IMG/VR virus record: IMGVR_UViG_2671181136_000008
Strand: one strand, 5' to 3'
DNA from: a virus
Lineage: Duplodnaviria > Heunggongvirae > Uroviricota > Caudoviricetes
DNA: 4,074 nt
Of this stretch, positions 104-4,074 are shown piece after piece. The translations under genes were made by a program, and so were the position numbers. The notes below the pieces were generated by a model. That model saw nothing but the letters and a program-made list of their open reading frames with translations. It searched no databases and was not told the origin of the DNA. Every line of letters starts with the position of its first letter. Position 1 is the stretch's first letter.

Positions 104-328
104 TTAAGTAAACCTGTCTGAACAGGTGCTCTGGTCGTGTTTGTCTTTGTTGGGTACAAATTGAGAATATTTTTCATTAATTAATCTTCTTCTGCAGGCT
201 TCAATAACCCACGCTGAAAAATTACCTGAACCTTTCAGGTCAAGAGCGATGTTAATTTGTTCAATTATCTGGTTTGGAAATCGGATGTTGCGGGTTGTTG
301 TTCTGCGGGTTCTGTTCTTTGATGACAT
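104..328 (-). CDS. Small prophage protein, YlcI/YnfO-like (DUF3950-type), function unknown
   Basis: 74-aa ORF with ATG at 328..326. The N-terminal motif MSSKNRTRRTTTRNIRFPNQIIEQINIALDLKGSGNFSAWVIEACRRRL matches my recollection of the small YlcI/YnfO proteins that sit next to Nu1 homologs in E. coli lambdoid prophages (DLP12, Qin). Recalled, not searched. A hairpin terminator lies downstream. Confidence 0.6.
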   Translation of the reverse strand: MSSKNRTRRTTTRNIRFPNQIIEQINIALDLKGSGNFSAWVIEACRRRLINEKYSQFVPNKDKHDQSTCSDRFT

Positions 329-329
329 A

Positions 330-535
330 ATGTTGCCCCGTATTCAGTGTTGCTGATTTGTATTATCTGAAGTTGCTTTTACGCTAATTTGATGCAGATC
401 AATTAATACGATACCTGCGTAATAATTGATTATTTCTCGTGGTTTGATGGCGTACACACATGTCGTGATAAACCTCATGTAGATGATAATTATTATCATT
501 TTCGTGGGTCCTTTCCGGCGATCCGACAGGTTACG
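330..535 (+). other. cosQ-like region, the phage genome right-end sequence immediately upstream of cosN
   Basis: AT-rich non-coding stretch ending in ...TCCTTTCCGGCGATCCGACAGGTTACG directly before the cohesive-end 12-mer. As I recall it, this closely resembles the last ~200 bp of the lambda genome, with scattered substitutions. Confidence 0.6.
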
Positions 536-547
536 GGGCGGCGACCT
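536..547 (+). other. cosN: 12-nt cohesive-end sequence GGGCGGCGACCT, the terminase nicking site
   Basis: Exact match to the lambda 12-nt cohesive end, flanked on both sides by lambda-like sequence (..CAGGTTACG | GGGCGGCGACCT | CGCGGGTTTTCGCTATTTATGAAAATTTTCCGG). It sits about 185 bp upstream of the terminase small-subunit start, as in lambda. Confidence 0.85.
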
Positions 548-700
548 CGCGGGTTTTCGCTATTTATGAAAATTTTCCGGGATCCATGTCCGGTTTCTCT
601 TCAAGTTAACTATATGAAAAATATAAAAACAGGTCTTCTGTGAACCGGACATGAACAAAAAACAGACATGTAAACCGGACATGACCGGTTTTGTTGTGAT
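548..700 (+). promoter_or_regulatory. cosB-like terminase small-subunit binding region: three copies of a CCGGACATG motif (one inverted, two direct) separated by an A/T-rich putative bending segment
   Basis: Seen in sequence: CATGTCCGG at 585..593 (inverted), CCGGACATG at 645..653 and again at 675..683 (direct, 30 bp apart). An extended AACCGGACATGA core is shared by the two direct copies. A/T-rich segment 597..642 lies between the inverted copy and the direct copies. The layout parallels lambda R3-I1-R2-R1, but the repeat sequence is not lambda's. Confidence 0.5.
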
Positions 701-730
701 TGTGAGGTGAGAGTTTTTGCGAGGTGAGGA

Positions 731-1240
731 GTGGCTACGCAGACTGAAGTTGCCAGGCATTTAAGTCTGACCGATCGCCAGCTTCGCAGATTGCAGAAAT
801 TGCCGGGTGCCCCGATATCGAATAAGCGAGGGCAACTGGATCTGGATGCCTGGCGCGATTTTTACATATCGTATCTGAGGAGAAGTAAAAACGATGTGCC
901 TGATGGCGATAGCGAAGACGACTATGAGGAGAAATTGCTTATTGCCAGATGGGAACTGACAGCAGAACAGGCTGTTACACAGCAGTTAAAAAATGAGGTG
1001 TCAAAAGGAAAACTTATTGACACCGGGTTCTGTATTTTTGCCCTCAGTAAGCTGGCAATGGCGTTATCCAGTACGCTTGATTCCATCCCTTTATCCATGC
1101 AGCGACAGTTTCCTGATTTAACACCGCGCCATCTTGACCATCTGAAAACCCTTATTGCGAAGGGGGCAAATCAGTGTGCGCGGGCAGGGGATAAATTACC
1201 GGATTTACTCGATGAATATATCAGAGCAACAACTGAATAA
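731..1240 (+). CDS. nu1: Terminase small subunit (Nu1-like) with a divergent N-terminal DNA-binding domain
   Basis: 169-aa ORF with a GTG start at 731, preceded by the purine-rich GAGGTGAGGAG. The C-terminal half (..TGFCIFALSKLAMALSSTLDSIPLSMQRQFPDLTPRHLDHLK..LPDLLDEYI) resembles lambda gpNu1 (..TAFCTFVLSRIAGEIASILDGLPLSVQRRFPELENRHVDFLK..IPGLLSEYI). The N-terminal ~60 aa are unlike lambda. The 3' end overlaps the large-subunit start by 29 nt, as in lambda. Confidence 0.85.
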   Translation: MATQTEVARHLSLTDRQLRRLQKLPGAPISNKRGQLDLDAWRDFYISYLRRSKNDVPDGDSEDDYEEKLLIARWELTAEQAVTQQLKNEVSKGKLIDTGFCIFALSKLAMALSSTLDSIPLSMQRQFPDLTPRHLDHLKTLIAKGANQCARAGDKLPDLLDEYIRATTE

Positions 1241-3140
1241 TATGATGGCTGCCGTTTCGGTTGCGCTGCAGCCTCTGGTCAGGGTTGTACCAATGACGGC
1301 AGTTGAATGGGCTGATCAAAATTATTATCTGCCTAAAGAATCTTCATATGGTGAGGGAGAATGGAAAACGCTGCCATTCCAGATCGCCATTATGAACTGT
1401 ATGGGTAACGACCAGGTTCGCACGGTTAACCTGATTAAATCTGCCCGTGTTGGCTATACAAAGATGTTGCTGGGGGTGGTCGGGTATTTTATTGAGCATA
1501 AATCCCGAAACAGTCTGCTTTTTCAGCCCACGGATTCTGCCGCTGAAGATTTTATGAAGTCTCACGTGGAGGCGACGATTCGGAACGTGCCATGCCTGAA
1601 AGACCTTTCCCCATGGCTGGGTCGTAAACATCGTGACAATACTCTCACGCTGAAACGCTTTTCATCGGGCGTCGGTTTCTGGTGCCTGGGCGGTGCAGCC
1701 GCCAAAAACTACCGTGAAAAATCCGTGGACGTGGTCTGCTATGACGAGCTTTCCTCGTTCGAGCCGGATGTCGAAAAAGAGGGCTCGCCAACCCTGCTGG
1801 GGGATAAGCGTATTGAGGGCTCTGTATGGCCAAAATCCATTCGCGGCTCGACGCCTAAAATCAAAGGTACCTGCCAGATCGAAAAAGCGGCCAACGAGTC
1901 GGCGCATTTCATGCGTTTCTATGTGCCCTGCCCGCACTGTGGGGAGGCGCAGTATCTGAAATTTGGCGATGAATCCACGCCTTTTGGCCTTAAATGGGAG
2001 AAGGACAGCCCCGAAAGCGTTTTCTACCTCTGTGAACATCATGGCTGCGTGATCCATCAGTCTGAGCTTGACCAGAGTAACGGGCGGTGGATCTGTGAAA
2101 ACACGGGTATGTGGACCCGTGACGGCCTGATGTTTTTCAGCGCCCGGGGGGATGAAATTCCGCCGCCGCGCTCCATCACGTTCCATATCTGGACGGCGTA
2201 CAGTCCGTTCACCACCTGGATACAGATAGTCTATGACTGGCTGGATGCACTGAAAGATCCCAACGGCCTGAAAACCTTTGTGAACACCACGCTGGGCGAG
2301 ACCTGGGAAGAGGCCGTGGGCGAAAAACTCGATCACCAGGTACTGATGGATAAGGTTGTGCGTTACACGGCGGCGGTGCCTGCCCGGGTGGTTTATCTGA
2401 CGGCGGGCATTGACTCGCAGCGAAACCGTTTTGAGATGTATGTCTGGGGATGGGCACCGGGAGAGGAAGCCTTTCTGGTGGATAAAATCATCATTATGGG
2501 CCGTCCCGATGAGGAAGAGACGCTGTTACGTGTGGATGCGGCGATCAACAAAAAATACTGCCATGCAGACGGAACCGAAATGACCATTTCCCGTGTCTGC
2601 TGGGACACCGGGGGGATCGATGGCGAAATTGTCTATCAGAGGTCAAAAAAACACGGTGTTTTCCGGGTGCTGCCGGTAAAAGGTGCATCTGTTTATGGCA
2701 AGCCGGTGATCACCATGCCAAAAACCCGCAATCAGTGGGGCGTGTATCTGTGCGAAGTGGGGACGGACACCGCAAAAGAAATTCTCTATGCCCGTATGAA
2801 AGCCGATCCCACGCCTGCGGATGAAGCCACGTCGTATGCCATCCGTTTTCCTGATGATCCGGAGATTTTTTCGCAGACAGAGGCGCAGCAACTGGTGGCG
2901 GAAGAGCTTGTGGAGAAGTGGGAAAAAGGAAAGATGCGTCTGCTGTGGGATAACAAAAAGCGGCGTAACGAAGCGCTGGACTGCCTGGTGTATGCCTACG
3001 CGGCATTACGTGTGTCCGTGCAACGCTGGCAGCTTGATCTGGCTGTACTGGCAAAATCCCGGGAAGAAGAGACGACCCGGCCAACCCTGAAAGAACTGGC
3101 AGCGAAGCTGTCCGGAGGAGTGAATGGTTACAGTCGCTGA
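1212..3140 (+). CDS. A: Terminase large subunit (lambda gpA-like: packaging ATPase and cos endonuclease)
   Basis: 642-aa protein starting at the ATG at 1212 (MNISEQQLNN..), matching the lambda gpA N-terminus MNISNSQVN. The 1155 start in the ORF track is an upstream in-frame extension. Collinear similarity to lambda gpA runs the full length, for example TAVEWADQNYYLPKES, KSARVGYTKM (P-loop-like), GSVWPKSIRGSTPK, FVNTTLGETWEE, YLTAGIDSQ, ICWDTGGID, KKRRNEALDC. Confidence 0.95.
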   Translation: MNISEQQLNNMMAAVSVALQPLVRVVPMTAVEWADQNYYLPKESSYGEGEWKTLPFQIAIMNCMGNDQVRTVNLIKSARVGYTKMLLGVVGYFIEHKSRNSLLFQPTDSAAEDFMKSHVEATIRNVPCLKDLSPWLGRKHRDNTLTLKRFSSGVGFWCLGGAAAKNYREKSVDVVCYDELSSFEPDVEKEGSPTLLGDKRIEGSVWPKSIRGSTPKIKGTCQIEKAANESAHFMRFYVPCPHCGEAQYLKFGDESTPFGLKWEKDSPESVFYLCEHHGCVIHQSELDQSNGRWICENTGMWTRDGLMFFSARGDEIPPPRSITFHIWTAYSPFTTWIQIVYDWLDALKDPNGLKTFVNTTLGETWEEAVGEKLDHQVLMDKVVRYTAAVPARVVYLTAGIDSQRNRFEMYVWGWAPGEEAFLVDKIIIMGRPDEEETLLRVDAAINKKYCHADGTEMTISRVCWDTGGIDGEIVYQRSKKHGVFRVLPVKGASVYGKPVITMPKTRNQWGVYLCEVGTDTAKEILYARMKADPTPADEATSYAIRFPDDPEIFSQTEAQQLVAEELVEKWEKGKMRLLWDNKKRRNEALDCLVYAYAALRVSVQRWQLDLAVLAKSREEETTRPTLKELAAKLSGGVNGYSR

Positions 3141-3330
3141 ACTGCAGGCGCTGCGTCAGGCGCGCCTTGATTTATTAACCGGTAAACGGGTGGTGTCTGT
3201 CCAGAAAGATGGTCGCAGAATTGAATATACGGCAGCTTCTCTGGATGAGCTTAACCGGGCGATCAATGATGCGGAGTCGGTACTGGGGACAACCCGCCGT
3301 CGCCGTCGTCCGCTGGGAGTGAGGTTATGA
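3124..3330 (+). CDS. W: Head-tail joining / head completion protein (lambda gpW-like)
   Basis: 68 aa, the same length as lambda gpW, with clear similarity (LTGKRVVSVQKDGRRIEYTAAS here, versus [22 protein letters not shown] in lambda) and an Arg-rich C-terminus. GGAGGA Shine-Dalgarno at 3114..3119. Overlaps the end of A by 17 nt. The stop TGA overlaps the next gene's ATG (ATGA at 3327..3330). Confidence 0.9.
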   Translation: MVTVAELQALRQARLDLLTGKRVVSVQKDGRRIEYTAASLDELNRAINDAESVLGTTRRRRRPLGVRL

Positions 3331-3959
3331 AACGAACGCCTGTCCTGATTGATGTGAACGGCGTTCCGCTTCGGGAGAGCCTCAGCTACAACGGTGGCGG
3401 TGCAGGATTTGGCGGGCAAATGGCAGAGTGGTTGCCACCGGCGCAGAGTGCCGATGCGGCCCTGCTGCCCGCGTTGCGTCTGGGGAATGCCCGTGCAGAT
3501 GATCTGGTGCGCAATAACGGAATAGCGGCCAATGCGGTGGCCCTGCATAAGGATCATATTGTCGGGCATATGTTTCTGATCAGCTACCGTCCGAACTGGC
3601 GCTGGCTGGGGATGCGGGAGACCGCGGCAAAAAGTTTTGTCGATGAGGTGGAGGCGGCCTGGTCAGAATACGCAGAAGGGATGTCTGGCGAGATCGACGT
3701 GGAAGGAAAACGCACGTTCACGGAATTTATCCGTGAAGGTGTGGGCGTTCATGCGTTTAACGGCGAAATCTTTGTGCAGCCGGTCTGGGATACGGAAACC
3801 ACGCAGTTATTCCGTACGCGTTTTAAAGCCGTGAGTCCGAAACGGGTGGACACGCCAGGACACGGTATGGGGAACCGTTTTCTGCGGGCCGGGGTGGAGG
3901 TCGATCGATATGGCCGTGCCGTTGCGTACCATATCTGTGAGGATGATTTTCCTCGGTAA
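3327..3959 (+). CDS. B: Portal protein (lambda gpB-like), N-terminal ~210 aa only; truncated relative to full-length ~530-aa portals
   Basis: Strong similarity to the lambda gpB N-terminus (GGGAGFGGQ, LLPALRLGNARADDLVRNNGIAANAVALHKDHIVGH, KRTFTEFIREGVGVHAFNGEIFVQPVWDT, LFRTRFKAVSPKR). The frame ends at TAA 3957..3959 where lambda continues (..EDGYPGWMPQKW..). No portal-like translation continues in any frame over 3960..4074. Confidence 0.8.
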   Translation: MKRTPVLIDVNGVPLRESLSYNGGGAGFGGQMAEWLPPAQSADAALLPALRLGNARADDLVRNNGIAANAVALHKDHIVGHMFLISYRPNWRWLGMRETAAKSFVDEVEAAWSEYAEGMSGEIDVEGKRTFTEFIREGVGVHAFNGEIFVQPVWDTETTQLFRTRFKAVSPKRVDTPGHGMGNRFLRAGVEVDRYGRAVAYHICEDDFPR

Positions 3960-4074
3960 CCGGCTCATTTAAACCGTCTGGTCTGTTTCCTCCGGCTCTA
4001 CAAAAATAATGTCCATCATTTTTAATGGACACTATCGTATGAAACACCGGACCTGGATCACTGAAGCTTTACGT

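Follow-up and report, generated by a model that had tools for sequence, protein, structure and literature searches.

The sequence analyzed here is a stretch of 4,074 bases from the IMG/VR virus record IMGVR_UViG_2671181136_000008 (hereafter, the window), which spans the junction between the late region and the head genes of a lambdoid prophage. Its main features are a cohesive-end packaging site (cos, 506-730) and, directly downstream on the plus strand, the genes for the two terminase subunits. The terminase small subunit (TerS) is encoded at 731-1240 as a protein of 169 amino acids with a GTG start, and the terminase large subunit (TerL) at 1212-3140 as a gpA-type protein with the Pfam domains GpA_ATPase and GpA_nuclease and 66% amino acid identity to gpA of phage lambda. 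The 5' end of the TerL gene overlaps the 3' end of the TerS gene, as in lambda, and a small-subunit gene lying directly upstream of a gpA-type TerL gene is the gene order of the Nu1 family. An initial annotation of this DNA had regarded the cos site as a mosaic of lambda and non-lambda parts. Here, we describe the organization of the site, the TerS that accompanies it and their distribution among related phages, prophages and a satellite.

Organization of the cos site

Alignment to the circularized ends of lambda revealed that window positions 520-580 are 100% identical to lambda 48487-48502 followed by lambda 1-45, up to ...GAAAATTTTCCGG. This interval contains the cohesive-end 12-mer of cosN, GGGCGGCGACCT (536-547, plus strand), which corresponds to lambda bases 1-12, and the spacer between cosN and cosB with its I2 segment (548-580, plus strand), which is 100% identical to lambda bases 13-45. 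The I2 segment (approximately bp 18-50) is conserved in lambda, 21, N15 and Gifsy-1 (PMC4856287), and the phage 21 record annotates an I2 IHF site at the position of this spacer. The left flank as a whole (181-580) is 88% identical to lambda. Similarity to lambda is lost at 581 and resumes only at 1295-3793, where the nucleotide identity to the lambda A-W-B genes is 66%. A megablast search against 50,697 phage records gave the identical break (query 3-251, that is, window 332-580).

Conservation within the site was examined in 77 IMG/VR loci that encode an essentially identical TerS N-terminal domain and that have 46 distinct upstream haplotypes; after addition of the window and phage PhiR12_1, the set comprised 47 distinct cos haplotypes. 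Only one of the 12 columns of the cosN 12-mer was variable among them. Upstream of cosN, the cosQ-like element GGGTCCTTTCC (506-516, plus strand), which forms part of the stretch that Fig S1 of Fillol-Salom 2019 labels as cosQ, is kept in lambda, and its columns 506-515 were invariant between strongly variable flanks. The phage 21 record has an R4 box annotated at this position.

Beyond the break, the motif AACCGGACATG occurs in three exact copies, at 585-595 (minus strand), 643-653 (plus) and 673-683 (plus), and in imperfect copies with one mismatch at 680-690 (minus) and two mismatches at 660-670 (plus). When up to two mismatches were allowed, the window contained six matches compared with 1.19 expected, and none of 200 shuffled sequences reached six. 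The initial annotation had described the 12-mer and the following ~33 bp, to about position 580, as identical to lambda, had placed an abrupt end of lambda similarity there and had listed three repeats in an inverted-direct-direct arrangement; the base-for-base identity of 520-580, the break at 581 in both the direct alignment and the megablast search, and the minus/plus/plus strands of the three exact copies bear out each of these statements.

The first copy belongs to a site that we designate R3' (585-596, minus strand; top strand CATGTCCGGTTT), an exact inverted copy of 672-683. It extends from +50 to +61 counted from the cos end, which coincides with the position of R3 in lambda (published as bp 50-65, of which 55-63 are in contact with protein; PMC9026076), and none of its 12 columns varied. 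The second copy, R2' (643-653, plus strand, +108 to +118), is inverted with respect to R3' and had three of 11 variable columns, all of low frequency. The third, R1' (673-683, plus strand, +138 to +148), has the orientation of R2' and had two of 11 variable columns, again of low frequency. In the spacer 654-672, on the other hand, 12 of the 19 columns were variable. Because R3' is invariant and R2' and R1' are nearly so while the spacers vary, the AACCGGACATG repeats appear to be protected.

Two further copies were considered as sites and rejected. The copy at 680-690 (minus strand, CATGACCGGTT) forms a near-palindrome with R1' and resembles the R1 of lambda in its R3 orientation and its offset of +145. 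Two E. coli haplotypes, the loci from other genera and the second cos site of a satellite described below all lack this copy, so it is unlikely to be essential. At 660-670, the degenerate copy falls within the spacer with the highest variability, and neither PhiR12_1 nor other haplotypes retain it.

Between R3' and R2' lies a candidate I1-like IHF site, TAACTATATGAAA (607-619, minus strand, +72 to +84), with two mismatches to YAANNNNTTGATW, the same number as in I1 of lambda (+74). We assessed I1 by positional comparison instead of a strict IHF consensus and scored every locus alike, including the I1 of lambda itself. A YAANNNNTTGATW-like site in the same orientation was present at +72 to +77 in 12 of 13 loci with multiple R sites, covering all three TerS classes defined below, with no mismatch in class A of Klebsiella and class C of Salmonella, one in 21 and phi80, and two in the window and lambda. 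The exception was an Enterobacter locus, whose best site is at +85 and in the opposite orientation.

Judged from its sequence, the layout of the site is that of lambda (cosQ-cosN-I2-R3-I1-R2-R1, with the I1-like element as a candidate), and the differences lie in the R sequences and in the orientation of the third site. The cosN 12-mer with its nick context, cosQ, the I2 spacer with its distance to R3 and the inversion of R2 relative to R3 are all present as in lambda-type cos sites. Counted from the first cohesive-end base, R3, R2 and R1 begin at +50, +108 and +138 in the window and at +53, +110 and +155 in lambda, and the TerS start codon is at +196 and +191, respectively. The start-to-start distance between R3' and R2' is 58 bp, compared with 57 bp in lambda, so that the position of R3 and the R3-R2 spacing agree within 1-3 bp. 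The repeats themselves are different: the R sequence of lambda is CGTTTCC(G/T)TTC, whereas that of the window is AACCGGACATG.

Small terminase subunit and its N-terminal classes

The TerS of the window can be divided into a predicted winged helix-turn-helix (HTH) domain (residues 1 to ~54), an acidic linker (~55-63) and a Nu1-type central and C-terminal part (63-169). The Pfam family Phage_Nu1 (PF07471) matched residues 49-150 only (E-value 1e-18; 67.9 bits versus a cut-off of 30), corresponding to profile positions 62-163. The small subunits of lambda, 21, N15 and phi80 aligned from approximately residue 60-73 onward with 40-47% identity, and in a global alignment to lambda Nu1, which forces the N-terminal domains together, residues 1-62 were 23% identical and residues 63-169 were 41% identical. 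PHROG 57 (terminase small subunit) spans residues 1-169, including 1-58. An AlphaFold model of the domain by itself (pLDDT 85) contains helices alpha1 (4-10), alpha2 (15-22) and alpha3 (38-52) and a wing loop between alpha2 and alpha3. On this model, the N-terminus is predicted to share the winged-HTH fold of lambda Nu1 despite non-significant sequence similarity, and we regard it as a winged-HTH domain that fills the structural and functional slot of Nu1 and has diverged strongly or, possibly, been replaced. As in lambda, the predicted winged HTH would be followed by a central helical and a C-terminal Nu1 region.

Related TerS proteins were found to share near-identical C-terminal halves (90-95% mutual identity) and to fall into three classes by their N-termini. 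Class A, to which the window belongs, begins with MATQxEVAxHLxLTxRQLRxLQKLPGAP; class B (MAxLLNKSDMASSIGISVQAFDKWGV) has the N-terminus of phage N15 gp1; and class C (MKVNKKxLAxxFG..RTIxxWQxQG) is the lambda/21/phi80 type. Upstream DNA was compared for 27 distinct loci (14 of class A, seven of class B and six of class C), with class A loci drawn from homologue-encoding contigs and IMG/VR; a scan of genome contigs had given nine loci, none of which was class A. The core TCCGGTT was found upstream of TerS in 14/14 class A loci and in none of the seven class B loci, whereas GTTGTTGT was found in 7/7 class B loci and 0/14 class A loci. The class B motif, GGTTGTTGTT, is the published R3-N15 (PMC4669245). 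Among class C loci, TCCGGTT occurred in one of six, namely lambda, as a single copy at the I2/R3 junction and not at the R3 position. The association between class and motif had a Fisher p of 7.5e-7, which is only indicative, since the loci are not phylogenetically independent.

In every class A locus with a locatable cos end, the TCCGGTT core occupies the R3 position. R2' is found at the same offset in the class A loci of Salmonella, Citrobacter, Enterobacter and Klebsiella; R1' is at +138 in Enterobacter and at +151 in Klebsiella, and is absent from those of Salmonella and Citrobacter. The association between class A and TCCGGTT also reaches Pseudomonas LPPA33, Aeromonas phiARM81ld and E. 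coli vB_EcoM-705R4. These distant class A phages have a single tandem site, TTCCGGTTCCGGTT, without inverted repeats, located ~50-65 bp from the cos end and just before the start codon. Their distance from cos to start is ~78-80 bp where the cos end can be identified, which parallels the simple cosB of N15.

Two subtypes could be distinguished within class A by comparing four loci (L016, L115, L117 and L119) with the window and three others (L019, L022 and L024). In subtype 1 (E. coli, Salmonella P0021, Citrobacter and Enterobacter), Arg20 and Leu/Met36 pair with AACCGGACAT, and in subtype 2, Asp/Asn/Thr20 and Tyr/Trp/Phe36 pair with AACCGGAA(A/G)(T/C). Residue 20 lies within the predicted recognition helix (15-22). 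Residues 20 and 36 are candidate contact residues, and we regard this covariation as a lead and not as proof.

Alignment with the cos regions of lambda, 21 and N15, as the initial annotation had suggested, placed the repeats of the window outside all three R families. Phage 21, which forms the classical specificity pair with lambda, follows the same concept of a shared cosN and I2 with a different cosB and TerS specificity. Its R boxes contain CATGTCGG, which is superficially like CATGTCCGG of the window, and the boxes TTTCATGTCGGNCCTT (L004 273-288 and 316-331) share CATGTC..GG with CATGTCCGGTTT. We considered whether the window belongs to the cosB family of 21 and rejected this assignment: the two sites have just CATGTC..GG in common, TCCGGTT, the core of class A, does not occur in 21, and the N-terminus of 21 gp1 is of the lambda class. 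The likeness is probably coincidental, because CATGTC is the part of the motif that varies between class A subtypes. N15 and Monarch have a distinct TerS domain and a distinct R3 at the same position, with a cosB consisting of a single R site (N15) or of three R sites with IHF (Monarch) (PMC4669245). Class A has both architectures, with multiple R sites in enterics and the single tandem site in Pseudomonas, Aeromonas and 705R4 relatives, but differs from N15 and Monarch in domain class and R motif. An N15 specificity for the window (R3-N15, GAGGTTGTTGTT) was likewise rejected, as no GTTGTTGT is present upstream of the TerS gene and the N-terminus is of class A and not B. Based on these comparisons, the repeats and the TerS N-terminus of the window would represent a third lambda-type specificity class, beside the lambda/21 and N15 types.

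A Salmonella locus with a lambda-class TerS (L028) has an unusually long distance of ~273 bp between cos and start codon. Its cosB appears to be duplicated, with two sets of AGATCC(G/T)(T/A)TCTT, an IHF-like TAACTAATTG and GAAAGGATCT.

Proposed exchange of a specificity cassette

In a class B locus of Escherichia sp. (L010), homologous flanks enclose a cassette of another class: it is 88% identical to the window over 194-576 and 95% identical over 936-2735, and cannot be aligned between these intervals, where it carries an N15-type cosB and N-terminus joined to the same lambda-like left flank. Homologous flanks around an unalignable interior require recombination. More generally, where class B and C loci had flanks homologous to those of the window, the alignment ended at 576 and resumed at 920-944. 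From four of these loci (L010, L009, L028 and L026), the cassette was delimited to approximately 577-935 on the plus strand, that is, cosB and TerS codons 1 to ~68. Its right end falls within the acidic linker that precedes the central helices. The cassette agrees with the division of domains known from hybrids of lambda with 21 or N15 (PMC9026076): in lambda and 21 the N-terminal half of TerS determines DNA specificity and the C-terminal half binds TerL, which makes hybrids possible (PMC9026076).

The initial annotation had proposed that cosB and the TerS N-terminus are swapped as a unit beside a conserved cosN, and had predicted from this that the N-terminal domain binds the repeats; the tracking of class and motif, the L010 locus and the conservation of the repeats all agree with this proposal. 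Its view of TerS held in part: the C-terminal half is conserved, and sequence comparison with lambda gives nothing significant for the N-terminus, but the term 'unrelated' went too far in light of the same predicted winged-HTH fold.

At the left joint, the end of I2 (572-583, AAATTTTCCGGG) resembles the class A core (ATTTCCGGTT), and the I2/R3 junction of lambda itself, the sole TCCGGTT match among class C loci, reads TTTTCCGGTTT. This likeness at 572-583 may be microhomology at the left joint of the cassette. As a separate observation, in two loci from Shigella flexneri and E. coli (L007 and L008) the TerS gene is cut by an insertion element at approximately residue 68, which is the right boundary of the cassette.

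Of 5,426 complete E. coli genomes, 1,167 contained the cassette; the median copy number in these carriers, among them O157:H7 and O145 strains, was two.

Proposed function and alternative explanations

We consider it likely, with a probability of about 80%, that 506-730 is a lambda-type cos site with a class A cosB, that it is paired with the class A TerS domain, and that cosB and this domain together form an exchanged specificity cassette. Binding by the class A domain, IHF dependence, nicking and specificity are proposed here by analogy with lambda (PMC9026076). On this analogy, a dimer of the class A domain would bind R3' and R2' across an IHF-induced bend and anchor the gpA-type TerL, which would nick cosN at positions 12 bp apart, and packaging would start rightwards. 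R1' might be accessory, because it is absent in the class A loci of Salmonella and Citrobacter. Conserved sequence at either side, cosN-I2 to the left and the coding sequence for the linker and coiled coil to the right, would let recombination exchange the cassette, and such exchange would give otherwise similar lambdoid prophages different packaging specificities.

Several observations weigh against this explanation. R1' has the orientation of R2', opposite to that of R1 in lambda; an R1 in R3 orientation is the pattern of lambda, 21, phi80 and Gifsy-1 (PMC9026076), although N15 indicates that this feature is dispensable to the family. The IHF-like site of the window is weak (two mismatches), and no consensus match with at most one mismatch was found anywhere in the window. 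For the N-terminal domain, alignment of the class A and class C profiles by hhalign gave a non-significant probability of 18%, with the HTH segments in register; profile searches found no sequence match in PDB, and the best Foldseek E-value was 0.54. The fold assignment depends on a predicted model, and the modeled domain is small and has matches to many MerR-type proteins as well. The loci underlying the covariation between class and motif are phylogenetically non-independent, and the Arg20 loci may all belong to one clade and could then represent one evolutionary event. Finally, the cos site of a defective prophage copy, as this one is (see below), may never be used, even though its sequence is that of the commonest haplotypes.

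An alternative that concerns the origin of the class A domain and not its function is capture: a MerR-like winged HTH from a non-orthologous protein (for example, an excisionase or a satellite protein of the Rpp type) would have been fused to the Nu1 core. The DNA-binding domain of the satellite proteins RppC and RppA of Gram-negative islands (PDB 6HN7 and 6HLK) is only 17% identical to the class A domain; Rpp proteins have no TerL-binding C-terminus and act as heterodimers with phage TerS, and the cos1 site of RppA, GTGAAGGTGACACCACCACC, is unrelated to AACCGGACATG. We regard this origin as rather unlikely.

It is also conceivable that the break at 581 is no recombination joint but the boundary between a constrained cosN-I2 and a cosB and TerS domain that co-evolved rapidly and diverged vertically. 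In favor of this explanation, every lambda-like phage examined has kept cosN-I2, even those with very different genes, and the downstream genes are 66% identical to lambda at the nucleotide level, so lambda was no recent partner for the right side. However, L010 and L009 have flanks 88% and 95% identical to those of the window around an unalignable cassette of another class, the three N-terminal classes are found on C-terminal halves that remain 90-95% identical, and the left flank at 181-520, which is beyond known cos function, is also ~88% identical to lambda. Gradual change cannot yield such a pattern, and we judge it unlikely that vertical divergence explains the break in the window.

That the repeats are RNA or DNA hairpins, such as an intrinsic terminator at 672-691, or operators for a regulator of late or head genes is very improbable: a terminator-like scan did flag 672-691 and 577-593 and the RNA of 665-705 folds at -11.5 kcal/mol, but the z-score of the hairpin does not go below -1.8 (an equally good fold was seen in 10 of 200 shuffles, and 570-605 folds no better than shuffles), the hairpin partner at 680-690 is lost in some E. 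coli haplotypes, other genera and the satellite cos2 while R1' is kept, the repeat motif co-varies with the TerS N-terminal class at an R3 position fixed relative to cosN, no Rfam match was obtained, and no promoter-like site was found in 1-1300.

The exchanged lambda-type cassette remains our preferred explanation, and we compared it with what has been published. The papers of the Feiss laboratory cover lambda, 21, phi80, Gifsy-1, N15, Monarch and phage-inducible chromosomal islands (PICIs) (PMC9026076, PMC4669245, PMC4856287), and a paper on the prophages of O157 Sakai aligned Sp4 and Sp14 to lambda over Nu1 and the 'putative cos', leaving cosB unmentioned. A literature search with the repeat motif as a string returned only unrelated primers or p53 sites, and related terms likewise yielded nothing about this class. 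It appears that the class A specificity class is undescribed in the literature searched, with its genes routinely annotated as 'terminase small subunit'. By analogy, the recognition mechanism seems to be the known lambda-type one, and it is the specificity class that seems to be new. To our knowledge, what has been learned by experiment about lambda-type cosB recognition comes from lambda, 21, phi80 and N15.

Genomic context of the window

To the left of the cos site lies a YlcI/YnfO (DUF3950) open reading frame (104-328, minus strand). This reading frame and the DNA up to cosQ (104-328 and 181-520) are ~88% identical to the right end of lambda, and the lambda record J02459 has no feature annotated at 47700-48502, the counterpart of the left flank. 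Downstream of TerL are the genes for gpW (3124-3330) and for a lambda-family portal protein (3327-3959), which ends after 210 codons. The last ~120 bp of the window (3956-4074) are the end of an IS66-family element, with a tnpA start near 4039, that interrupts the portal gene, and matches of the whole window to E. coli end at 3952-3955. Because the portal gene is cut by this element, the prophage copy is defective.

The TerS coding sequence of the window is also annotated in phage PhiR12_1, and the database entries for the PhiR12 phages, which have the same cos and TerS, are complete phage genomes that list K-12 or E. coli C as host. The cos site and TerS of the window come from a common type of lambda-like E. 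coli prophage.

A class A cos site in the island EcCICFT073

The PICI EcCICFT073 has two cos sites. The sequence of cos2, as printed in Figure S1 of Fillol-Salom et al. 2019, includes a cosB of the window type. In the CFT073 genome, cos2 is 90% identical to window 530-682, and its alignment to PhiR12_1 extends over 179 bp with 93% identity, from cosQ to the last base of R1'. From R3' through R1' there is a single mismatch to PhiR12_1, and the homology stops directly after R1'. It holds cosQ, cosN, I2, R3', the I1-like site, R2' and R1', and by sequence it is a class A cos from cosQ to R1'. The site is located in inverted orientation just past rppA, beside cos1, and has no adjoining terminase gene (L121, CFT073 NC_004431.1 1372000-1402000, minus strand, from ~16340 down to 16162). 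Among the 5,426 genomes, the PICI-flanked version of cos2 was found at a coverage of at least 80% in 63.

According to the published work on EcCICFT073, no phage cosB was identifiable in the island, and the cosB of cos2 was termed completely divergent without a cognate phage being named. The same work reported that cos1, and not cos2, is needed for transfer by lambda and phi80 and is the target of RppA, and that deletion of cos2 raises transfer by lambda and phi80. We found no later paper that mentions cos2 in the literature searched, which assigns no role to the site.

We tentatively suggest, as a possibility to which we give somewhat less than even odds, that cos2 was captured from a PhiR12/O157-type prophage and lets the unmodified terminase of a class A helper package the island directly, without Rpp, with cos1 and RppA serving helpers of the lambda/21/phi80 class. 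If so, the island would have a separate packaging key for each of two terminase specificity classes, which would account both for the presence of two cos sites and for cos2 being dispensable, and even slightly inhibitory, with lambda and phi80. A secondary part of this suggestion is a readable class A recognition rule, in which residue 20 (Arg versus Asp/Asn/Thr) and residue 36 (Leu/Met versus an aromatic residue) would be paired with C versus A at repeat position 8.

Implications for lambdoid phages and their satellites

Class A is found in about one-fifth of complete E. coli genomes, often in multiple copies. With its conserved layout, three interchangeable domain classes, covariation between residues and bases, and the cultivable PhiR12 series, it offers a natural test system, and the class A cos offers a testable account of the second cos site in the best-studied Gram-negative PICI. 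Packaging specificity sets which DNA is encapsidated by a lambdoid phage or by a satellite that exploits it, and in this way controls transduction and how virulence genes spread among the prophages and islands of E. coli.

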